Positions 1,656 through 22,686 of a stretch of DNA of 64,000 nt are shown here, in pieces. The stretch comes from a virus. The notes beneath the pieces were generated by a model. It saw nothing but the letters and a program-made list of their open reading frames with translations. It had not been told where the DNA came from and searched no databases. Position 1 is the first letter of the stretch. Each line of letters begins with the position of its first letter. The DNA lies in the IMG/VR virus record IMGVR_UViG_3300045988_124978, positions 241-64,240 of that record; one strand, given 5' to 3'. The translations under genes and the position numbers were made by a program.

Positions 1656-2789
1656 ATGATTAAAGGACAATACGACCAAAAGGCTTATGATAGTTCTATT
1701 CCTGGGGCAAGTGGTGTGGGGGGGCAACCTTCTACGCCATCTACTGAAACGGATAGCTCTGTGAACACTGAGGAGACTAAGGATCCGAAGACTGATGTTG
1801 CTCCACCTGCTGACAAGCAGGTTGGGGTGTCGCCACAGAATAATGCTGATGCACTGATTGGTTACGATCAACAGATTGCGATGTTGGAAAATGAGGCTAA
1901 TGGGCTTAAACCTGAGACCGAGGAGGAGCGCAAGAAACGTGAGAGGCGTGAGAAGTCTCAGAAGATTGTTGCTGCTGTGAGTGATGGTTTGCAAGCGTTG
2001 AGTAATCTTTTCTTCACAACTCGCGGTGCTCCCAACATGTATGACCATGACACGAATGGTCAGCTTTCTCCACTGCAAACGAAGTTGGACAAACTAAAGG
2101 CTGAACGTCAAGCTAATGCTGATAAGTATTTGCAGTATTCTCTGAAAATTGGAGATTTGAGGAACGAGCGTGCTAAGACCTTGCGTGAGATGGAGGCTGA
2201 GCAGGAAAAACGGAAGTTGGCGCGTGAGAAGGCGCAACGTGAGCAGGAGGAGCATGGATGGCTTGCTGCATTGCAGCCCGACAAATTGCGTGAGCAGAAA
2301 GGAAAGGCTGATAAGGCTGGTTATGACGCAGACACAGCTAAGGCTGAGGCAGATAATGCTCCTGCAATGCAAAAAGCTAAACTTGAAACGGAAAAGGCGC
2401 ATAAGGATGCCTATGTTGCTTCTGCTGGTGCAAGTAGAGCAGCAGAAACAAATTCGTATGCTTCGGCAAATGAGCACAATACCAATGCTAGGGGACGTTT
2501 CCAGTGGTGGGACGAGAACGGGAACATGCATTATGCCAAGACCGAAGACGAAGCCATTACTAAGGCTCGCCAGCATGGAACACTTGACAGTGTGACTGTG
2601 AGCACTACGGACAGCACGGACAGTGATGTGGTGGTACGTGGCAAAGTTAAGGGCAAGAAGAACTCCAAGAAGACCACATCAAAGAAGGTGTTCTACCCCG
2701 GAATTAGGAAGAGACCTGCAGCAGCGAAGCCGAGTGGTCGCAAGTCTGAACAACAGTCATATAAAAATACAAAAGAATTAGGATATTAA
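1656..2789 (+). CDS. hypothetical protein, Lys/Glu-rich coiled-coil middle, basic C-terminus; candidate virion/internal protein co-transcribed with giant gene
   Basis: 377-aa ORF ending 3 nt before giant ORF start. Confidence 0.5.
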   Translation: MIKGQYDQKAYDSSIPGASGVGGQPSTPSTETDSSVNTEETKDPKTDVAPPADKQVGVSPQNNADALIGYDQQIAMLENEANGLKPETEEERKKRERREKSQKIVAAVSDGLQALSNLFFTTRGAPNMYDHDTNGQLSPLQTKLDKLKAERQANADKYLQYSLKIGDLRNERAKTLREMEAEQEKRKLAREKAQREQEEHGWLAALQPDKLREQKGKADKAGYDADTAKAEADNAPAMQKAKLETEKAHKDAYVASAGASRAAETNSYASANEHNTNARGRFQWWDENGNMHYAKTEDEAITKARQHGTLDSVTVSTTDSTDSDVVVRGKVKGKKNSKKTTSKKVFYPGIRKRPAAAKPSGRKSEQQSYKNTKELGY

Positions 2790-2792
2790 GAT

Positions 2793-5700
2793 ATGCCATA
2801 CGATAAAATAGACCAACTATATGATGCACTGAAGAAAGATGGTGCAGTCAGCAAGAGCCGTGAGTATTTCCGCAGTAAGATGCTTGCTCCTGGTAAGGAG
2901 GGCTATCAAAACCGCTTGCAACTTTACAATGCTCTGAAAGCGGATGGAGCCATAGAGAGCCCAACCTATGAAGAATTTGGCAAGCGTTTGGGGCTTCATG
3001 CGGTAAACACCGCACCTGTGTCTAAACCTCAGCCTCAAAAGCCTAATACAGATAGTCGTGTTGTGTTTATTAATACGCCTCAAAAGCCAGCGCAAGCGAC
3101 ACCTGCAAAACCGAAACCAACTCCAAGAAAGGCTCCAGCAAAACAAAAGGGAACACCGCTTACGCAGGTTGACAAGCAGAAAATGTTGGCTTTCGTTAAC
3201 AACATGAGGAATGAGACCAATGCTTCGCTTCAACGCTTCAATAACCGCATGGACTACCATAGAGCAAATGCTGGACTGAGAGTGCCTCATGTTACACTTG
3301 GTAAAAAGAACAGCGGTATAAAACTTGGTCAGAATAGTAAGGTTGTTGCTAAGAAACCACAGTTTAATCCGCAGTCAGGCAAGATGGAACAGACCTACAT
3401 CACGGAGAGCGGTAATGAGTACACCGACCGCAACTCTGCTGATTTGGAGCAGAATACCATCGACGCGTACAAGGATAGCATGAGCGTAAGTGGTCAGTTG
3501 CGCGAGGCTTATGCGGAGCGCGATAGATTGGACGAGGCAATGAAAAAGCGTATGAAGGAAATAGACGAACGTCCTAATCAGCGTTTCAACGATTTCATGC
3601 GTGAGTTTGCAGCTTCCATGACACCTGGTGCAGGTCCTGTGGGTGAGCAAGATGCGCGTATGTCGAAGTATGACAACGACGATGAATACATGCAACTCAT
3701 GGCAGCAGCTCGCAAGAACCATCAGACCATTCAGTTATTGGAGGACAAGAAAAACAACCAGATGTATAGTTTCTGGCACTCACTTGCTACAACAGCATCG
3801 AATGGTTACACTTTTTCAGACGGTATGAGCGAGATGCGCGATGCAACAGCCCTGCAGCGTGCATCAAAACATATAGACACGATTAACAAAAAGCGTGAGG
3901 AAGGTAAGACCTTGACGAAAGAGGAGCAGACTGCCGAAGCGGTGCTGAAGAACTTCGCCAAAGATAATGCTATGCAAAGCATGTATGGCGGAGATTATGG
4001 CGCATGGGCAAGGGCTGGTGGCATGACTGCCAATTCTTTTGACTTTATGAAAGACCTTATGCTCAATCCTGGTGCTGGAAGCATAGCTAAGGGTGTTATG
4101 CGCGGAACGGCTAAGGGAATGGCTAAAGGTATAGCTAAGTTGACTGGAAAGGAAGCCGCCAATTTATGGAAGAACGATGTGTTGCGCAGAACGCTGAAAG
4201 CGACAGGTGTGTTGTTGGGTGCTCATACGGCAGGTGCATATGTCAGCAATACAACAGGTATAGGTAGAACATCCGCCACAATGGGAACACTTGCTTCGGG
4301 AGAGGTCGGTGTGGACGACAAGGGTAATTATAAGGTGGAGAACGCTATGGGACTTCTCCCTGCATTTGCTGAGGCTGAGCGTCAACAAGCACGCGAGAAT
4401 GGCTCGGAGATGTTCGGTGAATTCATTCCTGGTGTAGGTGGCGTTGTAAAGAAAGGCTTGGAGAAAATAGGTCTTAGTAAGTTGTCGGGAGCTATGACAA
4501 ACATCGGCAACAAGGAATGGTACAAGCAGTATAGTAGATTGCTTGAGTCTGGCGGTTATAATGGTTTGCCTGGTGAGGCTTTGGAGGAATACGAGGGTTC
4601 GCTTTTCGATGCGCTTACTGGCCATGCCGGGGACGCATGGGACGACATGACGAACTTGCAGAACCATGTGGACATCTGGCTGGGGTGTGCTACCATGGGC
4701 GCACTGCTTGGCTCTGTACCGATGATGATGCAGGGGCACCATACTGCGCAATACTACCGATACAAGCACAACACGGACAAAGCCGACAACCTCGCCTCGT
4801 TCCGAATGACCGCAGAACGCTGGGAACCTCTGCGCGACGAGATTGATAACACAGACAACAGCAAGATGGCGGATGTGGTTACTGGTATCATCAACAACCC
4901 TGATCTTCACGTCGAGGAAAAAAAGGCAGCACTGAACTATGTGCGTAATCTAACTATGATGAGAGGTTACAACATTGCGCAGGTAAACAATGCCAGTGAT
5001 GAGGAGGAAGAGCGTCCTGAGGTGCAGAGCGTGAATGACAGTTACTCAAAAGGGTACGAAACCACGGAACCACAAGACATGAACGATACGAAGACTCTGC
5101 TTGAACTGAAGCGTGAGCAGGTTGCGAAAGAACATGGTATTGAGAATGTGGACGATGTGGACGCTCTTATTGGCGATGATCCTCTGCGCTACATTGAGGA
5201 GCAGAAGCAGTTGGGTAATACGGACAAGCTCCAATCTGTTATTGACTATGCCAATGCAAAATCGGCATACGATGGCATGGTGCAGCGTGTGCAAGATGAT
5301 ATTGACAATCGTGTGGAGGAAAGTAATGCGACAGTTAATAGCCGTGTTAATCGCCATGACGGAATGATACACCTTGCATCATTGAAGTTGAAGAACGAGG
5401 ACGGAACGGATAAGAAAGTGTATATTGTCAGCGGCAATGTAGTGATGTTCAATGACGGAAAGGGCGTTGATAGGGAGCAATCCGACAACACGATTGTTAT
5501 CCGTGATGTTGAGACTGGCGAGATGAAAGTAATTCCGCCAGACCTTATCCGTGGCTTGGACGCAGCCGTAGACCCCGAGGAGGAGAAAGCGAGAGCAAGG
5601 GAAGCAATCATTGAGGAGATGTCACAGACCGCAGCAAACAACGTGGACGGTGTGGTGTCTTTCAATGAAGGTGACACCTATACGTTGACAGAGGAGAATG

Positions 5701-8700
5701 GTGAACAGACACATGTGACGCTTGTTGCCAACGAACAGGGACTTGTGGACAATGGGGACGGAACTGTCAACGTAACTGTTGATGGTCAGAATGTTGTGCC
5801 TATGAGTATGGAGGAAATACAGAGTGGCGTGGATGCCACTAATATGGCTCGTACCATGCAAGCAGAAAAAGAACGTCAAGCTAATGAAAACGCACCAAAT
5901 TCAGATGAAAGTGTACAGAATGATGGCGAAAGTGTAGAAGAAAAGCCCGATGGTGTAGAATATGGCGTGAATGACACCTTTACGCTTCTTAATGGTGAAG
6001 ACGAAATCATTCATGGAGAGGTGCAGGGTGTTAGTGATGATGGTGTAGAAATCCGCACGGACGAGCCTTTGAACGGAAAGCGTGTGCAGATTATCCCTGC
6101 CGAGGAGTTTGAAGAAATGGTCGAGAGCATCAATGATGCGGACGGCAATCAAGTATGGGCGAGAGAATATGCCGAAGACACGGAAGATACGAATGAAACC
6201 GAGGAAACATCAGATAATTCCGTAACGCAAGACAATGATGTTGCTCCTGTAACTCCGACAGCGGATGAACTTGTGCGTATGGCTCGTGAAGGTAATGAAC
6301 TTGCACAGCATCAACTTGAAGCGCAAGGTGTGGAGTGGGAAGAACCTTCCGAACACCAGCCTACCGCATTGGAGCGTGTTCCCATCAACGAGGCAACACA
6401 GGAACCTATGTTTGAGAAGGCAGACCGCGAGACAGCCCTTGATGCGCTTAATGAACTTACAGGAGGTAATGAGGAAAATACTTCGGCTATTATTAACGCA
6501 CAGGTTGATCAAGCTACCAAAGCTCTTGAAACTTTGAAGAAGAAGGCCCCGAAAAAGAAAGCTCCTGCATTGACGGGTTCGCCAATGGAAATGTTGAAAG
6601 CGCAGAAGGAGGCTGACGATAGTTACAACACTGCCATTGAGGAGTATAACGCACAAGTAGCCGCAGCAGAAGAGAATCTGAATGCCTGGACGCGTATTTA
6701 TTCGCTCATGGGTGACCGCAAGCGTGCTGCACGTGAGCAGTTGAATGCAGAGCGTAATGCTATGGATGAGCAATTACATGCTGAGGCTGTAGCTAAATTG
6801 GAGGGAAACAAGCGCATTGCAGCTGAGAAAGCAGCCGAGCAAGCCGAAGTTGGCTCTCATGCCGTGAACCCTAAAATAAAGGGAAAGTGGGATGGTGCTA
6901 CTAAGGTTGAGGGCAATCCTAACGCTATTACTCTTGCAGATGGTTCAACGATCCGTGGTCACTACGTCCTCACTGAGGCAGGAGCAGCCACAGCCAGCCA
7001 TGACGTGAACAATGCCTACGAGCCTACTGAAGGTTTCCCCGTTGATGAGAACGGAGAGAGCGTGAATGACCGCGACTATAAGCGTGACACGGACGCACAA
7101 CGCATTGTTAGGGATATGGCAGACAGCTACGATAGCAGAGCTTTGCAGACACCTGTTATTGTTAGTAAGGATGGTGTTGTGCTTTCGGGCAATAACCGCA
7201 CTATGTCGGGAGAGATTGCAGCGAAGAACGGCACAGACAAGGCGTATGTGGAACACTTGCGCGAGTTTGGATCTATGTTCGGTTTCACTCCTGAGCAGAT
7301 TGATGGTATGCAGCATCCACGTGTCGTCTTTGTTCCTGATGAGGAATTGCCTTACGATGCAAGTACGTTTGCACGCTTCAATGCTGAACAGCAGAAGAAG
7401 CAGAGCAAGCCAGAGCATGCCGTGAAGCTTGGCAAGATTGTTCCTGACAATGTATTTGCAAGCATTGTTGGTGATATTAGTCGCTTTGACCGCATGTCGG
7501 ACTACTATGCCGATGGAAATGCAGTATCTTCTGCCATTGGTCAGTTATTGGAGGCTGGTGTTATTAACGAGATGCAGTTGCCGGAGCTTCGCACTGGCAA
7601 TGCTTTGTCGGCAGCAGGTAAGGAACTTATCGAGAACACACTTATAGGCAAGGTCTTCCAGGCTTCGCCCGATGCCGTGCGTCAAATAATCAGCACACCT
7701 ACGCTTCGCCAATCTGTTGTTATGGGATTGAACGAGATTTCCAATAACCGTACACTCGCCAAGAGCGACTATGACCTTAGCAAGGAATTGGCAGCAGCCG
7801 TTAATCTTGTAAATCGTGCCAAGTCAGAGTCACCCGAAATTTACAAAGAAGGTATGCCTGTATCTCCTTACGGCAGACAGCAAGGTTTGTTTGACGATGA
7901 ATACGGAGATAGCCGTGTAACTGATGGCGTTACGCTTATACTTGCTGACATATTGAACAGCGGTAAGCCGAGCGACTTGCGCAAGTTCCTTTCAATATAT
8001 AATAATGAAGCTGCTTCACCTGCAAGCGGTCAGTTGGACATGTTTAGCGGTGGGGTGACTTCAAAGGAAGAATTGTTGAACCGATTAAATGAATATTTTA
8101 GAAATGCAACACCAAAAGAACAACAAGCAATCGTTGATGCCTCAGTCGCAGAACGAAAGCAGAGAGCAGAAGCAGCTGCGCAAAATGCAGATGGCTTTGG
8201 ACGCGATGGAGAAGAGCCAACCGACATACAAGGAGAAAGTAATGGCGGAGTTTCAGAAGCACATGTAGGTTTGAATGATGACGAGGCAAATGAACTTTTG
8301 TCTCGCATGGAAGACAACACGTCAGAAATTCCACAAATGGAACTCAATCCGACTAATTGGATTGAGCAGTTTGGTGAAAATGGTATGGTGTCAACCCCAT
8401 TGGGTAAAGTAAAGATGGGTGAAAACCAAATTGCCAAGTTGTTTGAGAAAGGACGTAGCGAGCAGTTTGGCATGATAAAGCCTACACTTGAGCATCCGCA
8501 CGTTATTGTTGAAGTTCCATCAGAAGCCAGTGATGGCAATACGGAACGTGCAAGTTCGTTACTGTTCATAAAAACTTTCAATGGAACAAACGGCAAAAAA
8601 GTGTATTACTTCAAGTCGGTAACGGTAAAGAAAGACGGATTGGAAGTCAGCGTTAGCAGTCATTATGACCGAGCCAAACGTGTGAAAGAGGCGTTGAAAA

Positions 8701-14700: not shown

Positions 14701-17700
14701 TACCTGAAGACTTTGTACCTGAATACTTCGGTGGCGCAACACACAAGTTCAAGATGCGCCCACACCAAGGTAAAGCCATTGTCCGAGGTACGATGCAGCC
14801 GTTAATGCTTGCCCATGAGGTTGGTACTGGTAAGACATTCACCCTTATCTCCACCGCAATGGAGATGCGCAGACTCGGCACGGCACGCAAACCTATGATT
14901 GTGGTACAGAATGCTACCGTAGGACAATTTGCAGCCTCAGCCAAGGAACTCTATCCAAATGCCAAGGTGCTTGTGTTGGATGATAACGATCGTGACGCAG
15001 AGGGACGCAAAAATTTCTACGCCAAAATAAAGTACAATGATTGGGATATGGTAATTATTCCTCAGAGTACATTGGATAAAATTCCCGATAGTGACGAGCG
15101 TCAGATGCAGTTTGTGCAGGATAAGATAGACGAGAAGATGCGTGTACTTGAGCAGATGCGTGAGGCTGACACCAACGGTAAAGACCCTATAACAAGGCGT
15201 GCAGAAAAAGAATTGGCAGATCTGCAAGTAGAAATGGCTGAACTGTCAGAAGAAATTTCGAAGAAGCGCACAGCTAATAACGAAAAGAAGAAAGCTGTTG
15301 CCAAGCAGAACGCAGCTGTTAAGGCGCAGGAAATGCTCGAGCGTAGCACGGATGATGTGGAGAACTTTGACGATATGGGCATTGATGCCCTACTCATTGA
15401 CGAAGCGCACGAATACAAACACCTTGGTTTTGCTACAGCCATGCAGCGCGGTGTGAAAGGCGTTGACCCTTCATACAGTAAGAAGTCGCAAGGCGTGTAT
15501 TTGAAGACGCAAGCCATATTGGAGAAGAACAATGGACGCAACGTTATCTTCGCCACAGGTACGCCTATCAGTAATACAGCAGCAGAGATTTGGACTTTCA
15601 TGCGTTACCTCATGCCAAAGGACACCATGAAGGAATACGGTATTTACTACTTTGACGACTTTGTGCGCAACTTCGGTAATATACAGCAGATGCCCGAGTT
15701 CAAAACAAATGGCAAGTTCAAGGAAGTGAACCGATTTGCAGGATATGTGAATTTGCCTGAGTTGGTTCGTATATGGTCGAGCGTATCGGATACGGCATTA
15801 ACCAAAGACCAGACGGAGCTTGTTGAGAAAATACCAGAAATGGAGGGTGGCAAGGCGCAGGACATTTATCTACCACAGACACGCGCATTGCGCAGCGTAA
15901 TGAAATATGTACGCAAGCAGTTGGACGATTTCGAGCAGATGAGTGGCAAGGAGAAGAAGGAAAACAGCAGTATACCTCTCACCATGTATGGCATTGCTCA
16001 GAGAGCAGCTGTTGATGCACGATTGGTACAAGTAGATGCTGAGGATGATCCAAGAAGCAAGACCAACGAAGCTGTGCGCCAAACTTTGCGTTCGCTGAAA
16101 GAAACGAACGACTACAAGGGTACGGTAGCCATCTTTGCTGACAGTTACGAGAACAAGCATAGCGGTTTCAACTTGTATGAGGATATCAAGAAAAAACTAG
16201 TTTCGCAAGGTGTTCCTGAAAGCGAAATCGTTGTGATGAAGTCAGGCATGAAAATAAAACAGAAGCTTGACATTTTCGACAAGGTAAACCGAGGCGAGGT
16301 GCGTGTTATACTCGGCAGTACTGCTACCCTTGGAACTGGTGTGAACATACAAGAACGTCTGCACACCCTTATCCATCTTGACGCGCCAAATCGCCCAATG
16401 GATTACACGCAGCGTAACGGACGCATCTTGCGACAGGGCAACCTGCACAAGCAATGGAACAAGCCTGTTCGTGTACTTCGTTTCGGTGTGGAAGATAGTC
16501 TTGACGTAACTGCATATCAGCGTTTGAAAACAAAAGGTGCGATTGCTGATAGTGTTATGGAGGGTGACCGACTGATGCAAGACAGCATGAACAACCGTGT
16601 GCTTGAAGAGGAAGAAGATGTGTTTGGCGACACTGTTGCTCAACTCTCAGGTAGTGAGTACGCTCTACTGAAGAACAATGCGGAGAAGAATGTGCGCAAG
16701 TATGAGAGCCGTAGGAAGCAGTGGGAAGCCGACCAAGTTTATATCCACTATGCCAAACCAAGGATCGAGGGACAGATAGAGGCAGCAGAGCAACGAGCAG
16801 AGGAAGCTAACGCACACCTGCATGCAGTGCAAAAGGCATTCCCCGGTGGTAAGTTCACTGAGATAACTGTAGGCAAGCTAAAATTTGCTTCGGTTGATGG
16901 CATGGCAGACTTCATCAAGGAACACAACAAAAAGATTCTTGATGTGGTAAAGGAAATGAAAAAGACACCTGTCACTAAAACTCAGACACAAACACTCACC
17001 TTATCATTGGGAGGTTATGACTTCGTTGTCAAAACAGAAATGTCACGAGAGACGGTGAATAATGGTGGGTCGTTGTTTGCCGAGATACACCGTAAAATGA
17101 GCTATTCATGCCCTGAACTTGGACTGAATGATGTACCTGTAAAGCAGTCGCTATTGCGCAACGCCATTGAGGATATTACCGAGAATGTAATCACAGGCAA
17201 GGATTTTGCTGAGCGTGTCGACGTTGCCACACGTATGATACAGCACGATAAATCAGAGTTGGAACAAGTAAAGCAGCGTGAAGGTAAACCATTTGAGTTT
17301 GAGAAGGAACTTGAAGAAGCCAAGCGTCAGTTTGAGGAATATTCCGAGGCCATGAAGGTAGAAATGGCAGAAAAGGAGAAGAAGTATGCCGAAATGGACG
17401 CAAGTGTTGAGGCAGCTACTGATGTCGTTGCAGACGATGAGGACGAAGCCGACGATGGTAACAGTAAACATCGTATGCTTGAAGATGATACACCTAATGT
17501 AATGGAGAATGATTCTAACGCGATGGTGGATCGAGTAACTGAGTTGTCAGAACGTCTTCACACTCCTGTACGCATCATACGTACTGAGGAAGAAGTGGCT
17601 GCTTTGCCGAGTGCGCGTCAGCGCAGAATGAAGGGTAGCTTTAATCCTTTGACAGGCGAGGTGACTATTGTTGTTCCCAACAATGCTAACATGGCAGACA

Positions 17701-20700
17701 TTGAGAATACGTTTGTGCATGAGGTTGTGGGTCACGATGGTTTGCGCGTACTGTTCCCTGATGAGGCGAAGCTGAACAATGCTCTTGATGAACTTTATCG
17801 TGTATCGAATGAAGGTATTCAGCAGACCATTGACCGCATGGCGCAGAAAATGTACGATGCCGAGGTGGACCGCATACGTGAGAAGAAGCGCAAAGAGCAT
17901 GAGGCAAAGGGCGAGGATACAAACGCTTCATACTATGCTGACATGGCTGAGGCACATGCCGAGGCGAGCAAGAAACGCGAACAGTTCAAGCGTGATGCCA
18001 CCGAGGAATATGGTGCCGACCTTGCAGGACGTATTGGTGAAAAAGGCTTTGAGCAGATGAGTGCTGAGGAACTTACCTTCTGGGGTAAGTTGAAAGCCAT
18101 GCTCCAAAAGGCTCTACAAAAATTGTTGGATGGATTGAAAATCCCCGGCAGAAGAAAGTGGGGGGATAAGGACTGGGCATTTGTGCTGCATGAAGCTTAC
18201 AAGCGTAAGAAGAATGGTGGTAAGCCTACTGTGTTCGATGCAGCTGATACTGAGGTTATGCGCAGGAAAACAGGGTTTGGAGATGTGATGTTCAGTGAGA
18301 ATAGACGTTCTGGAGGTTCTAGGTATATCGAGGATATGAAACAGAAGGTTGAAGAATTGTTTGAAAAAGCCAGGACAGGAGAGTTTGTCGGGAAACCTGC
18401 AAGCATCGGTCGGCTTAGCGCAGATGGCAAGGTATACTTGGAGCAATTGTCAGGATTGCATTTCAAGGAATATGTAGACTTTGTTCTCAATCCTTCGGAT
18501 TTGAATCACATCCGTGCTGATCACTATGGTCAGAATGAAAAGGATAAGGGTAATAATATTCCTTTGACTGATGAGGATATTCAGAATATGGTGGACGTGC
18601 TGAACCAGCCTGACGGCATACTCTATGGCATTGATAAGAATGATGGACGAAAGTTGTTCTTCTTCTTGAGAGATGCAGGTAACGGATTGTATAATCTGAC
18701 GGAAGTGTGCAGTACAAAAAAAGGAAACCTTACTGCAAAGAGTTTCTTTAAATCAAAAAAGAAAGGTATCGACCAGCGAGTTATGGAAATTAGACAATCC
18801 CTACTCCCTACGTCCGTAACGTACTCTGGTGAATCCCTTTCTTCGGATGCAAAGATACCGCCTTTGTTTGATATTAACGAAGTTTCTGACGAAAATGTTT
18901 CAGATGAGGGCATTATGTTCAGTGATGGTAAGAATAAGACCGGTGAGCCAAAGCCAATAGGACACAGCACATTCGGAAGCGTGTACAACCAGTTCAAGGG
19001 CAAAGTTCTTCAAGCCGTGAAATTCTTGCTCAATCACGAAAGCGGAGATTTGCTTGGTGTTTTCCATAGAAATGATGTAGGAGATATTGATATGGTTTGG
19101 GGTGATGAAGGTGGCGGATTCTGCCATATTCTGAACAAGCATATCAACGACAAGGACTTTCCTACTGTCAAGGATTTGGTATCTCGCATAGAAGACATCA
19201 TAAACAAAGGAGAGGTTGACGAACGACATTCTAATGCCGACAAACTTGTATTGGTGAAGGATGGTTACCTTGTTACGATACGTCGTAACGTAAGAGAAAA
19301 GGGCATAAAAATAGCCGACAAGAACTGGGTTCTGACGGCTTATAATAAAGATGCACCTGCCACCACCAAGGCTCCCGTTGATGGCACTTATGGGAGCACG
19401 GCTGTCGCTCCCGGTACATCTTCGGATGCAAAGTTAGCAACAAAGTCTGAGATTAACGAATTTTCAGACAATAATGTTACAGATGATGGCATTATGTTCC
19501 GCGACGGTGACAGTGAGGAGTATGACAAGGCAATGGCGCGTGACATTTATGAGCAGCGTGTAAGACGTGGTATGTTCCAAACGCAAGAAGCTGTGCAAGA
19601 TAGTATGCTTGGACTGAAGGAAGCTATGGACGCGATACTGAAGGCTGAGGATGAAGATGTTTATATAGAAGACGTGGCAGGATATGAGAATGCTTACCTT
19701 GGCGAGAATCGCCTATCTTCTGTTAATCAGGCTGAGTGTTCTGCCTTTGCGCAAACTTTGTTTAAGCCTTTGCTCGAGGAAGTAGCTAAACTTGCTAAGA
19801 CTGCTGACGAACGTGCAGAGTTGACTGATTACATGATGGCTAAGCATGGGTTGGAACGTAATCAGGTTATGGCGCGGAGGGCTGCTGAGAAGGATGCTCG
19901 TTCGGAGTTCTCTGCAGAGTTGCTTGCTGCTCAGCAGGCTGTAGACAATGATCCGTTAGACCAAGATGCGATTGATGCTCTTGATGATGTGACGCAGCGA
20001 ATGCAAGATCGTGAAGATGAGCTTTACTTGAAGAACCGCGAACGTGACTTTGCTGGTCTTACCGCTTTGACAGGAATGAACAATGTGCTTGATGCGGAAG
20101 CAGAGGCGCAACAAATGGTATCTGACTACGAAAGTAACCATTGGGTTCCTGTTTTGTGGAACAATGTTAAGGCTGTAACAAAGGCTACATTGCAGAAGAC
20201 ATACGAAAGTGGACTCATTAACAAAGCAACATACGACGACATCAGCGGAATGTATGAGACTTATATCCCTTTGCGTGGCTTTGACGACCAAACAAGTGAC
20301 GAGGTGTATGCTTACTTGGCTGATAAGCATAGTGCATTTAATGCTCCTATCAAAACAGCTAAGGGTCGTAAAAGTAAAGCTGACGACCCATTTGCTAATA
20401 TGGAGGCTATGGCTGAAAGTGCGATTATGCAGGGTAACCGCAATGTGCTTGTGAAGCAGAAGTTTTTGAACTTTGCTTTGAACCATCCGAGTGATTTGGT
20501 TAGTGTGAGTGATTTGTGGTTGTATCATGATGATGTGTTAGATGAGTGGCAACCCATTAACACGGGTGGATTTGTTGGTACAGAGGCTATTGAAGAAGAT
20601 GACAGTCCTGCTGAAGTAGAGCGTAAGATGCGTGATTTTGAAGAAGCGATGGAAAATGCTGCAAAAGTTGACCCCGACCATTTTAAGAAGCAGAAGGATC

Positions 20701-22604
20701 ATCCTGAAATTCCATACAGAGTTGTGGAAAGTAGAGATCTAAAGCAGCACCAAGTGTTGGTGAAGAGAAATGGTAAGGACTATTTGATTACAATCAATGG
20801 TAATCCGAGGGCTGCACAGGCGTTGAACGGACAGACCAACCCAGACAATGACGTGTCAGGTGCAATAGGTGCAATCATGCGATTAGGTGAGACCGTAAAT
20901 CGTCAGTTGTCGGCATTTTACACCACACGCAACCCAGACTTCGTTGTGTCGAACTTTATTCGAGACATGATTTATGCTAATACAATGGTATGGGTAAAGG
21001 AAAGCCCGAATTATGCTTGGCGTTTCCATAAGAACTTTGCAAAGGTAAACCCAGCCAAGATGAAGATACTTCTTGCCAAGATGCGCAATGGTACTCTTGA
21101 TATGAACGATGAAACGGAGAAGATGTTCCACCTATTCATGATGAATGGTGGTGAGACTGGCTATGCCAACATACGTGACATCGAACAGCGCAAGAATGAC
21201 ATCAAGCGTGAGTTGAAGAAGTATAATGGTAAGATTCCAATTAGAAAGGCTTGGACTTTGTTGGGAGAAAGACTTGACGAATACAATAGAGCAGTAGAGA
21301 ACTGCGCACGCTTTGCTGCCTTTATGACTTCACGGCAGTTGAGACGTACTATTGACCGTAGCGTGTATGACGCTAAGGAGATCAGTGTGAATTTCAACAA
21401 GAAGGGTAGTGGTGCCAAATTCATGGGTGCGAATAGTCAAACTAGGATAGGCAATGTAGCTGCATTCACTTCAGGGCTTGGCCGTAGTTTCTATGTATTC
21501 TGGAATGCTGCAATTCAAGGTACTACGAATTTTGGACGGCAATTTAAACGACATCCGCAGAAAGCCATTGCAGGAGCAGCAGCAATGTTTCTTTTTGGTG
21601 CATTGATGGCGATTATCGGCAGTTGTGATGGTGGTGATGATGATGACGACAAGAATGCTTATTACAATCTGCCCGAATATGTGCGTAGAAGTAACATCGT
21701 ATTCCGTCTTCCTGGTATGGATCAGTCATGGATAAGCATGCCACTACCTGTTGAGTACCGCGCCATGTATGGCATGGGTGAACTTATGGTTAGCGCGATG
21801 ATTGGAAATGAACACTACACTGCTGGTGAACTTGCGCACCAAATGGCAAGTCAAGTAAGTCAAATGTTCCCGATCGACTTTATGGAGGGAGGTGGTAGTT
21901 TTAAGGCTTTCGTTCCGAGTGCGATAAAACCTGTTGCCGAAGTGATTGGCAATGAAAGTTGGACAGGTATGCCGATCTACAAGGACACACCTTTTAATAA
22001 GGATATGCCAGAATGGACAAAGGCATACAAGAGTGCTAATAAGTACTTGGTAGGCTTATCTAAGGTATTGAATGAGGCAACAGGTGGTGATGCTTATACG
22101 AGTGGCATGATTGACATAAATCCTGCACAAGTGGAATACATGTTGAATGGTGTTTTCGGTGGAGTATCATCAACTATTGACAAACTTACGAAGATGGGTG
22201 AAACTATTATTGGCAACCGAGAGTATGATCCTCGCAGTTTCCTCTTGCTGAACAGACTTGTGAAAAACGGTGACGAACGTACAGAATACAGAGCCGTTAA
22301 TAATGAGTATTTCAGAATAAAGGAAGAAAGCGAGAAATTGCGTACGAGGTTGAACCATTATGAGAACGACACAGCAGACGGAGTGTTTGATTATGCGGAA
22401 AAGATAGCGTGGTTGAACAACTCGCCCGAGTATCGCATATTGGAAACGTACGAAGATTATTCGGGAGACATTGACGATATTAACGAGGAGTTGAAAGCCG
22501 CAACCTCTGATGAGGAGCGCAAAGAGCTTGAAGCCGAACTCAACGAGAAGAAGAAAGAACTTGTTGACGCTGTTAACAATATTCGAAATGGTAAGCAACA
22601 ATAG
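2793..22604 (+). CDS. giant polyvalent multidomain protein (6603 aa): ParB-like, PPase-like, N6-adenine MTase + SF2 helicase (DarB-like), HExxH metallopeptidase-like, tandem His-domains, C-terminal TM segment
   Basis: 19,812-nt stop-free ORF, which chance cannot explain; multiple recognisable enzymatic motifs (sub-features below); immediately upstream of putative portal. Confidence 0.85.
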   Translation: MPYDKIDQLYDALKKDGAVSKSREYFRSKMLAPGKEGYQNRLQLYNALKADGAIESPTYEEFGKRLGLHAVNTAPVSKPQPQKPNTDSRVVFINTPQKPAQATPAKPKPTPRKAPAKQKGTPLTQVDKQKMLAFVNNMRNETNASLQRFNNRMDYHRANAGLRVPHVTLGKKNSGIKLGQNSKVVAKKPQFNPQSGKMEQTYITESGNEYTDRNSADLEQNTIDAYKDSMSVSGQLREAYAERDRLDEAMKKRMKEIDERPNQRFNDFMREFAASMTPGAGPVGEQDARMSKYDNDDEYMQLMAAARKNHQTIQLLEDKKNNQMYSFWHSLATTASNGYTFSDGMSEMRDATALQRASKHIDTINKKREEGKTLTKEEQTAEAVLKNFAKDNAMQSMYGGDYGAWARAGGMTANSFDFMKDLMLNPGAGSIAKGVMRGTAKGMAKGIAKLTGKEAANLWKNDVLRRTLKATGVLLGAHTAGAYVSNTTGIGRTSATMGTLASGEVGVDDKGNYKVENAMGLLPAFAEAERQQARENGSEMFGEFIPGVGGVVKKGLEKIGLSKLSGAMTNIGNKEWYKQYSRLLESGGYNGLPGEALEEYEGSLFDALTGHAGDAWDDMTNLQNHVDIWLGCATMGALLGSVPMMMQGHHTAQYYRYKHNTDKADNLASFRMTAERWEPLRDEIDNTDNSKMADVVTGIINNPDLHVEEKKAALNYVRNLTMMRGYNIAQVNNASDEEEERPEVQSVNDSYSKGYETTEPQDMNDTKTLLELKREQVAKEHGIENVDDVDALIGDDPLRYIEEQKQLGNTDKLQSVIDYANAKSAYDGMVQRVQDDIDNRVEESNATVNSRVNRHDGMIHLASLKLKNEDGTDKKVYIVSGNVVMFNDGKGVDREQSDNTIVIRDVETGEMKVIPPDLIRGLDAAVDPEEEKARAREAIIEEMSQTAANNVDGVVSFNEGDTYTLTEENGEQTHVTLVANEQGLVDNGDGTVNVTVDGQNVVPMSMEEIQSGVDATNMARTMQAEKERQANENAPNSDESVQNDGESVEEKPDGVEYGVNDTFTLLNGEDEIIHGEVQGVSDDGVEIRTDEPLNGKRVQIIPAEEFEEMVESINDADGNQVWAREYAEDTEDTNETEETSDNSVTQDNDVAPVTPTADELVRMAREGNELAQHQLEAQGVEWEEPSEHQPTALERVPINEATQEPMFEKADRETALDALNELTGGNEENTSAIINAQVDQATKALETLKKKAPKKKAPALTGSPMEMLKAQKEADDSYNTAIEEYNAQVAAAEENLNAWTRIYSLMGDRKRAAREQLNAERNAMDEQLHAEAVAKLEGNKRIAAEKAAEQAEVGSHAVNPKIKGKWDGATKVEGNPNAITLADGSTIRGHYVLTEAGAATASHDVNNAYEPTEGFPVDENGESVNDRDYKRDTDAQRIVRDMADSYDSRALQTPVIVSKDGVVLSGNNRTMSGEIAAKNGTDKAYVEHLREFGSMFGFTPEQIDGMQHPRVVFVPDEELPYDASTFARFNAEQQKKQSKPEHAVKLGKIVPDNVFASIVGDISRFDRMSDYYADGNAVSSAIGQLLEAGVINEMQLPELRTGNALSAAGKELIENTLIGKVFQASPDAVRQIISTPTLRQSVVMGLNEISNNRTLAKSDYDLSKELAAAVNLVNRAKSESPEIYKEGMPVSPYGRQQGLFDDEYGDSRVTDGVTLILADILNSGKPSDLRKFLSIYNNEAASPASGQLDMFSGGVTSKEELLNRLNEYFRNATPKEQQAIVDASVAERKQRAEAAAQNADGFGRDGEEPTDIQGESNGGVSEAHVGLNDDEANELLSRMEDNTSEIPQMELNPTNWIEQFGENGMVSTPLGKVKMGENQIAKLFEKGRSEQFGMIKPTLEHPHVIVEVPSEASDGNTERASSLLFIKTFNGTNGKKVYYFKSVTVKKDGLEVSVSSHYDRAKRVKEALKKGKLLYRFDGGAQTERHPADVSVTTSPKNTQGNDNMVWKHADDVSDASDVAQGLYSSQGNVSDLATEGTDAPQTSMSNNIWSASEVQNDNSVVVSDGLQSEPITENSSSSNGVPSKNEVHSVPALGEGTNTDTSEVNSGHSEGVTAPAGNSSKTSFGKVINKQLSLQENGEKSSENEGEAPLSAQIEAASAKVNTEPTEAQKKAGNYKKGHVQVGTFDITIEQPQGSVRKGTDANGKQWESKMNNTYGYIRGAVGVDGDHIDVFLSNDIDGWNGRKVFVVDQYNPDGSFDEHKVMLGFNDADEAKGDYLANYGKGWEKGRRIDVSAVNLEDFEKWIASSKRKTKPFAEYVVVKKDTVGKSGNISDEEIENAAFALGLHGENQTLMRLELDNTPERARQILDRAKKWNEKNAASPTTLSKDETTYTITPSTYTNKKGKTSNVSLLTFDHDLTADQERAVKEFAKEKLSEGRFAKSRGWKDRESGGWMFRSEEDARKVAEMVGNEEAVADNQPLTAQELRDAVEPKKPTASKKPANRVELADVAEQKPSEPTKAEQPKQDREKKLVITDEMKHDEDILRELLGIDDDELDGGMKFRDPDAMTSQQRRFVYNAGVNYSLGYIDQGFVKFPEFAKAMVNRLGYKIKPWLKSFYEGVKRIPGYDQSIFTPTEEVDAFDVENFDKPTKDVMAQANMIVEEGKAQVAAEKANNELKEIRNEQRKETEKQTAANTDAVAAEAKSVASEATALAETSSDEQALTGAAERVDETLDKVNEQLALLGYYEADEVEKDYNEAYGYMRNAEKKAVKDAANLASQLISDLNLNHYEASHSKQTDKKGNRKKKPLAVSNISPIGGDVSIHLPLEEGRELYLTIGVEPRAAKGVDGFGGSDLEVTHIMFRVDHPEGTGNDRYGRNVFVDSNVTYSDLLKQVQRETYKYLIGSGVTNEGEYAAGDEVQYSTDGGRTWTDAVVVQPNDEGGIRIDTGLAPVMWVNAHPDQLRHKPSESAEPKHEAVGDFYEDGINENAVAALPEDTAIQLHVVDILNPGMTDHSMKSKIESLNTLLPMISDKKLSELDKEYGDDKDMGTHIKAEVARRAKDGGVQPTSSEKPADKPKPASKKKATKKVKPEQPVGDLFAGLFDNTSDNGLQGNDEAVRTETVPADNSGQQQGLRESQGSPRKTAAQEGGRPDGGRGGQSTGKDRAVSAGLHGLTQPKNTHNNHSERGADHAPTSVNGRIEANIKAIELAHELLESGETATPEQMSVLRQFSGWGGLGAAFSDGGYDWKQRERNKKIRELLGEEAYEQAVMSANSAYYTPAYVVDTLWDIANQLGFKGGNILEGSAGIGNILGQMPTMVSERSNIHAIEIDGTSGGILSLLYPDAKVEIQGFEQTRIPNGSVDLAITNVPFVTGLRVNDTTGDSDLSKKFHNIHDFCIAKNVRKLREGGLGIFISSNGTLDNSKALRDWVVNEGGSDFIGAFRMNNKTFGGTTVTSDIIVIRKRVNGQKSAQAIDVSTISGERTAEYEEPGARKAKQLSMDYNKYFIEHPDHMAGEMRFAFEKGDTFRPTSKGLYPVSGKDQGKMLADFVKSFTEEDNSQMTATDHHDVSLVLDASADGKKLGEMYMKDGKIVLASFGGYYPLEVNDKKIKGHTKQECFTAYAAIKTALADVMKYQTENEDNEGLKPLIAKLNKAYDSFVSTYGHFTKNNQLAWLRNDVDYPNVFSLETYKEQGDGKGGVVKTYDKADVMKGRVVEKEIEPHPENVKDGVVVSMFKNGRIDVPYIANQLGKSEAEVKREIIDSGLGFEDPTTRQMEVSYQYLSGNVREKLKQAEANNENGEYSKNIKALQDVVPMNIPAHLIDFTLGSSWLDPKLYDEYVKERTDIDVHFTAAGGTWFMKAPTYGVNVEKNRAMGIVSEMLKKTIMGHELIEAAIQNKSITISRTEKHYDGTTETITDREAMAACAAKIDEIRQDFKDWARGKMQRNADLSARIEQEYNDRFNNYVPMSIPEDFVPEYFGGATHKFKMRPHQGKAIVRGTMQPLMLAHEVGTGKTFTLISTAMEMRRLGTARKPMIVVQNATVGQFAASAKELYPNAKVLVLDDNDRDAEGRKNFYAKIKYNDWDMVIIPQSTLDKIPDSDERQMQFVQDKIDEKMRVLEQMREADTNGKDPITRRAEKELADLQVEMAELSEEISKKRTANNEKKKAVAKQNAAVKAQEMLERSTDDVENFDDMGIDALLIDEAHEYKHLGFATAMQRGVKGVDPSYSKKSQGVYLKTQAILEKNNGRNVIFATGTPISNTAAEIWTFMRYLMPKDTMKEYGIYYFDDFVRNFGNIQQMPEFKTNGKFKEVNRFAGYVNLPELVRIWSSVSDTALTKDQTELVEKIPEMEGGKAQDIYLPQTRALRSVMKYVRKQLDDFEQMSGKEKKENSSIPLTMYGIAQRAAVDARLVQVDAEDDPRSKTNEAVRQTLRSLKETNDYKGTVAIFADSYENKHSGFNLYEDIKKKLVSQGVPESEIVVMKSGMKIKQKLDIFDKVNRGEVRVILGSTATLGTGVNIQERLHTLIHLDAPNRPMDYTQRNGRILRQGNLHKQWNKPVRVLRFGVEDSLDVTAYQRLKTKGAIADSVMEGDRLMQDSMNNRVLEEEEDVFGDTVAQLSGSEYALLKNNAEKNVRKYESRRKQWEADQVYIHYAKPRIEGQIEAAEQRAEEANAHLHAVQKAFPGGKFTEITVGKLKFASVDGMADFIKEHNKKILDVVKEMKKTPVTKTQTQTLTLSLGGYDFVVKTEMSRETVNNGGSLFAEIHRKMSYSCPELGLNDVPVKQSLLRNAIEDITENVITGKDFAERVDVATRMIQHDKSELEQVKQREGKPFEFEKELEEAKRQFEEYSEAMKVEMAEKEKKYAEMDASVEAATDVVADDEDEADDGNSKHRMLEDDTPNVMENDSNAMVDRVTELSERLHTPVRIIRTEEEVAALPSARQRRMKGSFNPLTGEVTIVVPNNANMADIENTFVHEVVGHDGLRVLFPDEAKLNNALDELYRVSNEGIQQTIDRMAQKMYDAEVDRIREKKRKEHEAKGEDTNASYYADMAEAHAEASKKREQFKRDATEEYGADLAGRIGEKGFEQMSAEELTFWGKLKAMLQKALQKLLDGLKIPGRRKWGDKDWAFVLHEAYKRKKNGGKPTVFDAADTEVMRRKTGFGDVMFSENRRSGGSRYIEDMKQKVEELFEKARTGEFVGKPASIGRLSADGKVYLEQLSGLHFKEYVDFVLNPSDLNHIRADHYGQNEKDKGNNIPLTDEDIQNMVDVLNQPDGILYGIDKNDGRKLFFFLRDAGNGLYNLTEVCSTKKGNLTAKSFFKSKKKGIDQRVMEIRQSLLPTSVTYSGESLSSDAKIPPLFDINEVSDENVSDEGIMFSDGKNKTGEPKPIGHSTFGSVYNQFKGKVLQAVKFLLNHESGDLLGVFHRNDVGDIDMVWGDEGGGFCHILNKHINDKDFPTVKDLVSRIEDIINKGEVDERHSNADKLVLVKDGYLVTIRRNVREKGIKIADKNWVLTAYNKDAPATTKAPVDGTYGSTAVAPGTSSDAKLATKSEINEFSDNNVTDDGIMFRDGDSEEYDKAMARDIYEQRVRRGMFQTQEAVQDSMLGLKEAMDAILKAEDEDVYIEDVAGYENAYLGENRLSSVNQAECSAFAQTLFKPLLEEVAKLAKTADERAELTDYMMAKHGLERNQVMARRAAEKDARSEFSAELLAAQQAVDNDPLDQDAIDALDDVTQRMQDREDELYLKNRERDFAGLTALTGMNNVLDAEAEAQQMVSDYESNHWVPVLWNNVKAVTKATLQKTYESGLINKATYDDISGMYETYIPLRGFDDQTSDEVYAYLADKHSAFNAPIKTAKGRKSKADDPFANMEAMAESAIMQGNRNVLVKQKFLNFALNHPSDLVSVSDLWLYHDDVLDEWQPINTGGFVGTEAIEEDDSPAEVERKMRDFEEAMENAAKVDPDHFKKQKDHPEIPYRVVESRDLKQHQVLVKRNGKDYLITINGNPRAAQALNGQTNPDNDVSGAIGAIMRLGETVNRQLSAFYTTRNPDFVVSNFIRDMIYANTMVWVKESPNYAWRFHKNFAKVNPAKMKILLAKMRNGTLDMNDETEKMFHLFMMNGGETGYANIRDIEQRKNDIKRELKKYNGKIPIRKAWTLLGERLDEYNRAVENCARFAAFMTSRQLRRTIDRSVYDAKEISVNFNKKGSGAKFMGANSQTRIGNVAAFTSGLGRSFYVFWNAAIQGTTNFGRQFKRHPQKAIAGAAAMFLFGALMAIIGSCDGGDDDDDKNAYYNLPEYVRRSNIVFRLPGMDQSWISMPLPVEYRAMYGMGELMVSAMIGNEHYTAGELAHQMASQVSQMFPIDFMEGGGSFKAFVPSAIKPVAEVIGNESWTGMPIYKDTPFNKDMPEWTKAYKSANKYLVGLSKVLNEATGGDAYTSGMIDINPAQVEYMLNGVFGGVSSTIDKLTKMGETIIGNREYDPRSFLLLNRLVKNGDERTEYRAVNNEYFRIKEESEKLRTRLNHYENDTADGVFDYAEKIAWLNNSPEYRILETYEDYSGDIDDINEELKAATSDEERKELEAELNEKKKELVDAVNNIRNGKQQ
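6960..7350 (+). other. ParB/sulfiredoxin-like nuclease domain within giant protein
   Basis: motif VIVSKDGVVLSGNNRTMSGEIAAKNG (nt 7155-7232) resembling the ParB DGxxLxxGxHR box; in frame. Confidence 0.5.
9300..9720 (+). other. inorganic pyrophosphatase (family I)-like domain within giant protein
   Basis: NTYGYIRGAVGVDGDHIDVFL...DEHKVMLGF compared with PPase signature NYGFIPQT..DGDPLDVLV...DEKI(I/V)AV. Confidence 0.45.
12380..13190 (+). other. gamma-class N6-adenine DNA methyltransferase domain within giant protein
   Basis: SAM motif ILEGSAGIGN (12693-12722) and catalytic DLAITNVPF (NPPY/F-type motif IV, 12894-12905). Confidence 0.65.
14700..16600 (+). other. superfamily-2 (SNF2/DEAH-like) helicase domain within giant protein; with upstream MTase this forms a P1 DarB-like module
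   Basis: Walker A GTGKT (14823-14837), DEAH box LLIDEAHE (15391-15414), motif VI QRNGRILRQGN (16410-16439). Confidence 0.7.
17600..17800 (+). other. zincin-like HExxH motif region (putative metallopeptidase) within giant protein
   Basis: TFVHEVVGHDG at 17712-17744. Confidence 0.4.
18440..19515 (+). other. tandem repeat of [~100-aa His-containing domain + ~33-aa linker] within giant protein; possible nuclease/toxin-type domains
   Basis: domain A HIRADHYGQNE...LFFFLRDAGNGLYNLTEV, domain B FCHILNKHIN...LVLVKDGYLVTIRRNV; linkers ESLSSDAKIPPLFDINEVSDENVSDEGIMFSDG and GTSSDAKLATKSEINEFSDNNVTDDGIMFRDG. Confidence 0.5.
21565..21660 (+). other. predicted transmembrane helix followed by DGGDDDDD acidic run near C-terminus of giant protein
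   Basis: AIAGAAAMFLFGALMAIIGSCDGGDDDDDKN. Confidence 0.5.
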
Positions 22605-22616
22605 TTAAACAACAAA

Positions 22617-22680
22617 GGATGGTGCAAGGAATTACCTTTGCATTCGCGAAGGTAGGGAACCTTTGCACCATCCCAATTTT
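22617..22680 (+). terminator. hairpin (13-bp stem) after giant ORF stop, followed by T-rich tract
   Basis: GGATGGTGCAAGG (22617-22629) pairs with CCTTTGCACCATCC (22660-22673); AATTTTAAAAAAA follows. Confidence 0.5.
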
Positions 22681-22686
22681 AAAAAA

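Follow-up and report, generated by a model that had tools for sequence, protein, structure and literature searches.

A 6,603-residue predicted polyvalent protein encoded beside the portal gene of a probable gut Bacteroidales phage

RESULTS

A giant gene with the domain content of phage-type polyvalent proteins

We analyzed a 64,000-nucleotide stretch of viral DNA (IMG/VR record IMGVR_UViG_3300045988_124978, positions 241 to 64,240; the whole stretch is called the window), 31% of which is taken up by a single gene. The gene starts with ATG and runs for 6603 codons plus a stop, with zero internal stops in the open reading frame (ORF) list and in the translation; its product is a protein of 6,603 amino acids (aa), with a mass of 735 kDa and a pI of 5.1. 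On the basis of its domains, this giant protein is almost certainly a phage-type polyvalent protein. The best overall explanation, in which we have good but not full confidence, is that it is packaged in the head, ejected with the DNA, and serves as an anti-defense payload.

Can known protein families account for a product of this size? Polyvalent proteins are defined as polypeptides with 2 to 15 functionally unrelated effector domains each, often longer than 2,000 aa. Their class, domains, genomic context, and proposed role were set out by Iyer, Burroughs, Anand, de Souza, and Aravind (J Bacteriol 2017; PMC5512222). All non-generic Pfam families matched by the giant protein trace to the polyvalent proteins of that study, and the class-specific domains present are PF18827, PF18763, PF18810, PF18823, PF18812, PF18809, and PF18857. 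InPase, DdrB-ParB, PBECR2, and LPD38 are reported there to be restricted to phage-type polyvalent proteins. The giant protein resembles this phage type in its multiple unrelated domains, in its class-specific families, and in its virion-gene context (portal, terminase large subunit, and major capsid protein). The domain features found are listed below, with nucleotide positions in the window followed by aa positions in the protein.

2793..22604, plus strand: giant gene, predicted to encode a polyvalent protein (ORF list and translation; PHROG 10089, 'DarB-like antirestriction', 2,206 bits, spanning aa ~2134-5060)
4389..4721, plus strand: LPD14, aa 533-643 (PF18827, E=1e-7, 32.5 bits versus a cutoff of 27)
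6942..7319, plus strand: DdrB-type ParB/Srx domain, aa 1384-1509 (PF18763, 29.7 bits versus a cutoff of 27.6; GNNR arginine motif at ~1465)
8358..8720, plus strand: PBECR2, predicted BECR-fold ribonuclease (RNase) cassette, slot 1, aa 1856-1976 (PF18810, E=1.5e-7)
9294..9707, plus strand: InPase, family-I-type pyrophosphatase OB domain, aa 2168-2305 (PF18823, E=1.4e-51, full-length profile match; DGDHIDV at 2226)
12381..13202, plus strand: LPD36-like lead-in and predicted N6-adenine methyltransferase (MTase), aa 3197-3470 (PHROG 11801, 'DNA methyltransferase', 1.4e-56; alignment with P1 DarB)
14748..16439, plus strand: SF2/SNF2-type helicase, aa 3986-4549 (PF04851, PF00176, PF00271; GTGKT, DEAH, TGTP, QRNGRILRQGN)
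17523..17852, plus strand: probable HExxxH zincin-like metallopeptidase, aa 4911-5020 (HEVVGH at 4976-4981)
18441..18773, plus strand: PBECR3, predicted RNase cassette, slot 2, aa 5217-5327 (PF18812, E=2.7e-15)
19062..19352, plus strand: PBECR1, predicted RNase cassette, slot 2, aa 5424-5520 (PF18809, E=2.6e-17)

Ten Pfam domain matches in the giant protein lie above their gathering cutoffs. Within the helicase, these comprise ResIII/SNF2 at aa 3986-4209 (PF04851, E=1.7e-6; PF00176, E=2e-8) and Helicase_C at aa 4438-4549 (PF00271, E=6e-12); LPD38 is matched at aa 6288-6469 (PF18857, E=1.4e-39). The PF18763 profile scores 84 bits in the ortholog from Bacteroides phage BS-TP4. A weak hydrophobic segment (aa 628-646, Kyte-Doolittle [KD] score of 1.51) lies at the end of the LPD14 region. 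The RNase function of PBECR1, PBECR2, and PBECR3 is predicted from family membership. Searches of the nine segments without domains against Pfam at E<=1 returned noise only (Herpes_U47, SPO22, S1, BNR, and others), and about half of the protein is without a domain call.

The predicted enzymatic content amounts to six kinds of activity across eight domains, in agreement with an earlier reading of the same DNA (the original prediction), which had counted at least six enzymatic modules. Profile-based parsing with Pfam, which that reading had proposed as a check, and with PHROG recovered nearly all of the modules that it had noted. Its ParB/Srx, family-I pyrophosphatase, and SF2 helicase calls correspond to PF18763, PF18823 (1.4e-51), and PF00176/PF04851/PF00271, respectively, and the two tandem His-bearing domains of ~100 aa that it had seen are PBECR3 and PBECR1 by Pfam. 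Two modules were absent from it, namely, PBECR2 (the third BECR domain, at aa 1856-1976) and LPD14 (aa 533-643). Other parts of the original prediction fared less well. The protein had been presented as an undescribed toolkit; however, the class, its domains, and its role were described in 2017, and both PHROG 10089 and the ortholog in Bacteroides phage BKO1-TP3 already carry the name DarB-like. Nor does its size set it apart, as had been suggested, since a polyvalent protein of 12,242 aa is cited by Iyer et al. (PMC5512222). The analogy that had been drawn to MuF-fused proteins has no counterpart in the window protein, in which Pfam finds no Phage_Mu_F domain; MuF_C-type BECR cassettes occur only in relatives.

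A DarB-like methyltransferase-helicase dyad

The original prediction had compared the MTase-helicase pair to the architecture of P1 DarB, and collinear homology bears this out. In BLASTP comparisons, the MTase and aa 47-274 of P1 DarB were 29% identical (E=2e-19), their LExSAGxG and NVPF motifs being aligned, and the helicase was collinear with that of P1 DarB (E=2e-20), with motif VI (QRNGR) conserved. Helicase motifs I, II, III, and VI are intact. The motifs quoted in the original prediction start at aa 3301 (ILEGSAGIGN), 3368 (NVPF), 4011 (GTGKT), 4203 (DEAH), 4540 (QRNGRILRQGN), and, outside the dyad, 6282 (DDDDD). In addition, FSGWGGLG at ~3231 occupies the correct position N-terminal to the MTase and fits the GxG[GAS] description of LPD36, in a segment with no Pfam LPD36 match at E<=1. 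A search of the MTase-helicase region against Protein Data Bank (PDB) sequences returned only INO80-type SNF2 similarity. An NCBIfam match to DrmD (SNF2) fell far under its cutoff; we regard it as generic helicase similarity and did not adopt a link to DISARM.

These data indicate that the giant protein carries a DarB-like dyad of an N6-adenine MTase and an SF2 helicase, with catalysis predicted. The LPD36-MTase-SF2 dyad was described by Iyer et al. with DarB as its archetype (PMC5512222). The P1 Dar proteins are internal head proteins that are co-ejected with the DNA, and DarB has a part in protection against the EcoB and EcoK type I systems (PMC12810830; PMC5512222). By analogy, we put the chance that anti-restriction is the main role of the dyad in the giant protein at slightly better than even.

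A probable HExxxH metallopeptidase

The original prediction had also reported an HExxH motif. The sole strict match to that pattern, HEYKH at aa 4206, proved spurious, consisting of residues that trail the DEAH box; what stands is a candidate metal site of the HExxxH form, HEVVGH, at aa 4976-4981. The pattern HExxxHxGLR is invariant in 56 distinct family sequences, in which it is preceded by a conserved KG...PN...D. An AlphaFold2 model of aa 4905-5165 (predicted local distance difference test [pLDDT] of 71.8) showed a helix, three strands, a helix bearing HEVVGH, and another helix. A clade of zincin-like peptidases in polyvalent proteins, with HEXXXH replacing HEXXH, is described by Iyer et al. 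(PMC5512222), and the predicted topology corresponds to the minimal zincin core as given there, which supports the peptidase reading. We therefore consider the segment a probable, putative zincin-like metallopeptidase. In the polyvalent class as a whole, a zincin-like metallopeptidase hub domain is common without being required. A search with the HExxxH profile against PDB sequences found nothing, and a word-indexed protein search with the segment returned mostly fragments.

Terminal modules with different distributions

The two ends of the giant protein hold modules of a different character.

2793..6932, plus strand: N-terminal lineage-specific module, aa 1-1380 (basic low-complexity start, Gly-rich hydrophobic stretch, acidic beta-rich region)
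19470..22601, plus strand: C-terminal module of ~1,040 aa (PLRGFD at aa 5826; LPD38; mostly helical)
21564..21650, plus strand: predicted transmembrane (TM) helix at aa 6258-6276 (KD 2.21), followed by CDGG-DDDDD (6282-6286)

The N-terminal module is 29-34% identical to the corresponding part of two Bacteroides phage proteins: gp55 of BKO1-TP3, a temperate, cultured phage (XPO94969.1; 5,553 aa; annotated 'DarB-like antirestriction'), and gp3 of BS-TP4 (XPO95421.1; 5,391 aa; locus L117:1511-17686; annotated only 'hypothetical protein'). These two were the only matches to the N-terminal 1,390 aa in a set of 50,697 phage records. The first 800 aa matched 44 protein clusters, and all those with a named source were from Bacteroidales. 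No PDB sequence relative was found for the N-terminal 2,169 aa. By eye, three tandem beta-rich units of ~60-70 aa can be seen at aa ~855-925, 955-1015, and 1056-1112 (nucleotides ~5355-6128); they were undetected by self-BLAST and gave only noise-level matches to S1 and BPL_C. These units may be small-barrel (SH3/OB-like) binding domains.

The C-terminal module is far more widespread. The last ~1,040 aa match PHROG 14770 with 1,195 bits, and the module was found in 335 phage records, including Stx-converting/933W-like, Bcep22-like, Ralstonia, and Vibrio phages. It also matched 392 protein clusters; of the clusters listed, almost all carried LPD38, with varied neighboring domains. A model of the module matched 49 viral models. 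Almost all of these represent C-terminal portions of polyvalent proteins, with cargo named as lytic transglycosylase, RelA/SpoT, Zeta toxin, ART-PolyVal, or type I methylase. The module thus recurs at the C terminus of polyvalent proteins with unrelated cargo. The TM helix and poly-Asp run that the original prediction had noted are both present, although they lie ~330 aa before the C terminus rather than at its extreme end; the acidic run is conserved in the consensus of our alignment of the module (alignment A2).

A model of packaging and ejection

How might the giant protein come to act in the host? The genes on either side of it are as follows.

1059..1607, plus strand: candidate T7-gp14-like internal virion protein, 182 aa (PF24072, 21.3 bits versus a cutoff of 27, near full-length)
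1656..2789, plus strand: 377-aa ORF with no assigned function (its stop lies 3 nucleotides before the giant ATG; position as for BKO1-TP3 gp56 and BS-TP4 gp2)
22663..24645, plus strand: P22-like portal (PF16510, E=9.4e-42)
24703..26832, minus strand: terminase large subunit (PHROG 2, E=2.3e-17)

The giant gene therefore sits directly upstream of the portal gene, as originally predicted, with 58 nucleotides between them, and a gene for an SU10-type major capsid protein lies further downstream. The ortholog of the 182-aa ORF in BKO1-TP3, gp57 (L001:35471-35950, minus strand), also matched PF24072 near full length, at 23.4 bits and under the cutoff of 27. These matches hint at a podophage-style block of ejection proteins.

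In the model that we favor, the giant protein would be synthesized late, become an internal protein of the head along with the products of the two small genes upstream, and be ejected via the portal and tail with the DNA. The N-terminal module and the C-terminal LPD38 module, with its TM helix and acidic run, would serve virion incorporation, envelope passage, or both. The LPD36-MTase-SNF2 dyad would translocate on and methylate the entering DNA in cis and so shield it from restriction, as in the DarB model. The DdrB-type ParB, the InPase, and the three BECR-fold RNase domains would act on host defenses based on nucleic acids or nucleotides, as Iyer et al. propose, and working units of the polyprotein may be released through cleavage by the HExxxH metallopeptidase. 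Like all of the enzymatic and anti-defense activities, the steps of packaging, ejection, and processing are inferred here. Packaging and ejection are argued from homologs, and we regard both as quite likely: JC1 gp69 (4,515 aa) was detected by mass spectrometry in purified virions, and Bcep22 gp75 (4,602 aa) is likewise reported as virion-associated by mass spectrometry (PMC9144972).

Several observations weigh against this model. Packaging in the Bacteroidales lineage is argued from JC1 gp69 and the P1 Dar proteins, which are more distantly related, and packaging of P1 DarB requires DarA, Hdf, and DdrA; no homologs of these proteins, or of Ulx, were identified here. The paper describing BKO1-TP3 does not discuss the giant gene. 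The gp14-like matches are below the gathering cutoff. Pfam finds no lysozyme or transglycosylase domain in the giant protein, unlike in Bcep22 gp75 or T7 gp16. The MTase and LPD36 segment has no Pfam MTase match even at E<=1, and neither has the HExxxH segment any Pfam match at that threshold; a fold search of the HExxxH domain gave mostly generic helical matches. Finally, the AlphaFold2 model of the C-terminal module, although mostly helical, is of low confidence (pLDDT of 62), and comparisons of the module with the PDB gave neither a sequence match nor, by Foldseek search of the model, a fold match. Because of the low model confidence and the absence of a solved structural relative, the role given to this module is a guess.

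Could the enzymes be secondary? In a plausible but less probable alternative, the giant protein is mainly a structural DNA-ejection (ejectosome) protein, equivalent to T7 gp16 or P22 gp16 in a gp14/gp15/gp16-like trio. Its termini would form a trans-envelope conduit, and the enzymes would be secondary passengers; this overlaps with the head-packaged payload and differs in which role is essential. A small-medium-giant trio is present in the window and in BKO1-TP3, BS-TP4, Bcep22, and the Stx phage TL-2011c, and two orthologs share the sub-threshold T7_gp14 matches. The TM helix in the C-terminal module, the hydrophobic Gly-rich region in the N-terminal module, and the retention of the C-terminal module across podophage lineages, whatever the cargo, also fit a conduit. 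However, PDB searches and the fold search of the C-terminal model revealed no similarity to solved ejection proteins, and the missing transglycosylase domain, the gp14 scores, and the low-confidence C-terminal model count against this alternative as well.

The giant protein could instead be an intracellular polyprotein that is never packaged and that modifies phage DNA and degrades host RNA in the infected cell or lysogen for takeover or superinfection exclusion, its position in the head module being incidental. Packaging in the window lineage is indeed argued from homologs, a cargo of 735 kDa is large for the capsid of a genome of ~64 kb, and some relatives split the same modules over two or more ORFs. 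We nevertheless consider this improbable: the homologs of 4,515-4,602 aa are virion-associated in phages of similar genome size, P1 DarB is a head protein, the giant gene is closely packed between its neighbors (3 and 58 nucleotides), and the Pfam families found are reported by Iyer et al. to be specific to phage-type polyvalent proteins in a virion context.

The reading frame is unbroken in most relatives

Is the giant ORF a single gene? Relatives were gathered by a back-translated search with the MTase segment of species-representative genomes, in which 34 loci matched, and of IMG/VR, in which 161 were found and 80 of the 161 were retained for analysis. Isolates were among the matches, with aa identities in the MTase segment of 99% for Leyella stercorea, 98% for Prevotellamassilia timonensis, and 79% for Bacteroides congonensis. 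The homologous ORF was unbroken in 75 loci that hold the complete gene (4,393-6,806 aa), from isolate genomes, metagenome-assembled genomes, and IMG/VR contigs, and in two further loci (L004 and L058) it continued past the end of the retrieved sequence, with a length of >= 6,973 aa. In the closest relative (L038), DNA identity reaches 97.6% across 93% of the giant gene. Only ~6 loci were split or rearranged. Three IMG/VR loci (L069, L070, and L078) have an in-frame interruption in a variable slot matching aa ~2980-3092 of the window protein, two (L096 and L104) have frame changes, and one (L043) is a rearranged contig. The interruption in L069, L070, and L078 separates an N-terminal half from a DarB-like half, each in its own collinear ORF; it may be due to fission of the gene in nature, to a stop that can be suppressed, or to an error in sequencing. 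Since homologous ORFs are unbroken in 75 independent assemblies, the giant ORF is one real gene. The concern about hidden frameshifts raised in the original prediction is thereby largely answered.

An assembly or sequencing artefact joining several neighboring genes is refuted by these data. The interrupted or frame-changed loci (L069, L070, L078, L096, and L104) are what could be said for it. Against this, the 75 complete ORFs come from different studies, including the Leyella stercorea and Bacteroides congonensis isolates and the cultured BKO1-TP3 and BS-TP4, and a stop-free run of 6603 codons would arise by chance with a probability of ~1e-173 given the gene's own base composition, as the original prediction had argued in outline; we give an artefact next to no credence. 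Still less tenable, and likewise refuted, is a repetitive structural fibre or tape-measure-like protein with spurious enzyme motifs, which the original prediction had named as the outcome that would overturn it: the long low-complexity and coiled-coil linkers (e.g., aa 1-130, 1980-2160, and 3060-3190) would suit such a protein, but self-BLAST found no internal repeats at E<1e-3, and the Pfam matches above cutoff and the collinear P1 DarB homology speak against it.

Word-indexed protein searches with parts of the giant protein returned no match longer than ~1,820 aa, although the DNA loci do contain giants of full length; proteins of great length seem to be represented there by fragments only.

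A constant chassis with variable slots

Comparison of the relatives revealed a constant N- and C-terminal chassis around a variable middle. The proportions of the 75 complete relatives that align with each region of the window protein were as follows.

aa 1800-2150 (PBECR2 region): 4-25%
aa 2150-2700: ~82-97%
aa 2700-3050: 30-57%
aa ~3200-5000: 97-100%
aa 5200-5550: 20-34%
aa ~5600-6550 (C-terminal module): ~73-75%

The blocks in common with BKO1-TP3 gp55 are aa 4-1512 (29% identity), 2146-2500 (46%), 3076-5164 (63%), and 5541-6591 (52%), and the segments at ~1513-2145, ~2694-3075, and ~5165-5540 have no counterpart in it. In relatives, 137-647 aa separate the HExxxH segment from the C-terminal module (slot 2), and this stretch holds nothing recognizable, MuF_C, PBECR3, PBECR1, unassigned sequence, or PBECR3 with a second copy of HExxxH. 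In the slot between ParB and InPase, one relative has PBECR1 in place of the PBECR2 of the window protein. Two contigs from the same IMG/VR source (3300045988; L037 and L038) encode proteins 98-99% identical to the window protein across most of its length, yet their PBECR2-like domain lies after the InPase rather than before it (protein positions ~2240-2400) and is only 45% identical, which indicates a recent cassette exchange. These comparisons indicate that BECR-RNase cassettes swap at slots even between phages that are ~98% identical. In the model that we favor, the payload would evolve through such exchange at defined slots edged by a repeated linker, three copies of which are found.

18270..18302, plus strand: junction linker copy 1, GFGDVMFSEN, aa ~5160-5170 (the BKO1-TP3 alignment breaks here)
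18846..18932, plus strand: junction linker copy 2, ...INEVSDENVSDEGIMFSDG, aa 5352-5380 (DNA direct repeat with copy 3)
19425..19511, plus strand: junction linker copy 3, ...INEFSDNNVTDDGIMFRDG, aa 5545-5573 (also the start of the C-terminal module)

The linker motif (...INExSDxNVxDxGIMF[SR]DG / GFGDVMFSEN) lies exactly at the borders of the PBECR cassettes, with 3 matches versus 0.025 expected by chance, and occurs 1-3 times each in 42 of 78 family proteins. Copies 2 and 3 form a direct DNA repeat of ~58 nucleotides that flanks the PBECR1 cassette, and the C-terminal module opens with a conserved RDGD (alignment A2). A possible weaker copy, DGGMKFRDP, was seen at aa ~2558. The linker could mark a joint for recombination, a site of proteolytic processing, or both. 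We tentatively consider a broader proposal, which as a joint claim is rather unlikely to hold in full: the termini would act as the third subunit of an ejection apparatus that threads the chain into the cell, the linker would be both the recombination joint and the site of cleavage by the HExxxH peptidase, and cleavage would free the toxins after injection. If true, such a modular delivery vehicle would be a cassette-exchange system for injected anti-defense effectors, similar to polymorphic toxin systems but within a virion protein.

Other genes of the window and the likely host

Elsewhere in the window, all on the minus strand, are genes for a stand-alone SNF2-type helicase (54008-55522; PHROG 62, 2.9e-102), a PDDEXK (DUF3799) nuclease (55730-56431), RecT (57959-58954), and an SPFH/Band 7 protein (41238-42020). 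A search for tRNAs in the window found none, and no integrase was seen among the window ORFs scanned. Prophage copies of the giant gene are present in Bacteroidales genomes. The giant protein had no match in a plasmid collection, which argues against an origin from a conjugative element. The source is likely a temperate-type, podovirus-like phage of gut Bacteroidales, with a host in the Prevotellaceae.

DISCUSSION

The predicted role of giant polyvalent proteins is that of multi-tool anti-defense effectors that are injected, and almost none of these proteins have been studied beyond P1 DarB. The present family is abundant in human-gut Bacteroidales, as judged from the 34 species-representative loci, the IMG/VR relatives, and the cultured phages BKO1-TP3 and BS-TP4. 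The share of the window that the gene occupies is comparable in magnitude to that of the JC1 homolog gene in its genome (22%; PMC9144972), which implies strong selection. To a specialist, the existence and general nature of the giant protein will be unsurprising; the abundance of the family in the gut makes it a good experimental entry point. The chassis, the swappable BECR-RNase cassettes, and the junction linker offer testable handles on what is packaged, where it is cut, and which defenses are countered. We regard as modestly new the layout of a chassis with a variable middle, the BECR cassette slots with a repeated junction linker, the turnover of cassettes between ~98%-identical phages, and the Bacteroidales-specific N-terminal module.

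With the phage-type polyvalent proteins described by Iyer et al., the giant protein shares the MTase-SF2 dyad, here with an LPD36-like lead-in, a probable HEXXXH metallopeptidase, the location among virion genes, and the mosaicism between close relatives. It differs in its exact domain order and combination, which we found in none of the loci examined; in its N-terminal ~1,380 aa, which are restricted to Bacteroidales phages; and in the repeated junction linker, which does not appear in the portions of Iyer et al. on which we drew.

Among the closest named systems are BKO1-TP3 and BS-TP4. Both have the same synteny, in which a gene for ~370-390 aa is followed by the giant gene and then the portal gene, and both share the N-terminal module (29-31% identity), ParB, InPase (46-47%), the HExxxH segment, and the C-terminal module (52-66%). 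BKO1-TP3 also has the MTase-helicase core in common (63%), whereas BS-TP4 gp3 has a Strawberry-notch-type helicase (AAA_34 and Helicase_C_4) where the window protein has the DarB dyad. Both lack counterparts of aa ~1513-2145 (PBECR2) and ~5165-5540 (PBECR3 and PBECR1). BS-TP4 gp3 is thus a polyvalent protein on the same chassis, and its public annotation can be improved.

Homologs in Bcep22-type podophages are ~27% identical over ~62% of a 3,000-aa query. Bcep22 gp75 and JC1 gp69 share the DarB-like dyad and a homologous C-terminal module (~23-27% identity), and their giant gene, the last of the structural block, comes after two virion-protein genes; this position differs from that in the window, where the giant gene adjoins the portal gene. 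Some of these homologs (e.g., those of CSP3 and DC1) are annotated with a lytic transglycosylase, which was not detected in the window protein, and their hosts are Proteobacteria, unlike the likely host of the window phage. In the Stx-converting (933W-like) phage TL-2011c, gp71 (2,263 aa; L118:4480-11271) is itself a polyvalent protein, with LPD5, LPD1, MuF_C, and LPD38. Its C-terminal LPD38 module is homologous to that of the giant protein (~25% identity over ~660 aa) and is preceded by a BECR-type MuF_C cassette; gp71 is one third of the size and has LPD5 and LPD1 instead of the MTase-helicase dyad, InPase, and ParB.

The comparison with P1 extends from sequence to gene order. P1 DarB (YP_006479.1; 2,255 aa) has a collinear MTase-SNF2 pair with LExSAGxG, NVPF, and QRNGR in common with the giant protein, and the darB gene adjoins the portal gene, as does the giant gene. 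Identity is only 22-29%, however, and the giant protein is three times as large and has at least five additional domains; P1 is also a myovirus, whereas the window phage has P22-like portal and SU10-like capsid genes. The DarB-type dyad, the DdrB-type ParB, and the metallopeptidase-like domain, which P1 spreads over separate Dar proteins, are joined in the giant protein in one chain.

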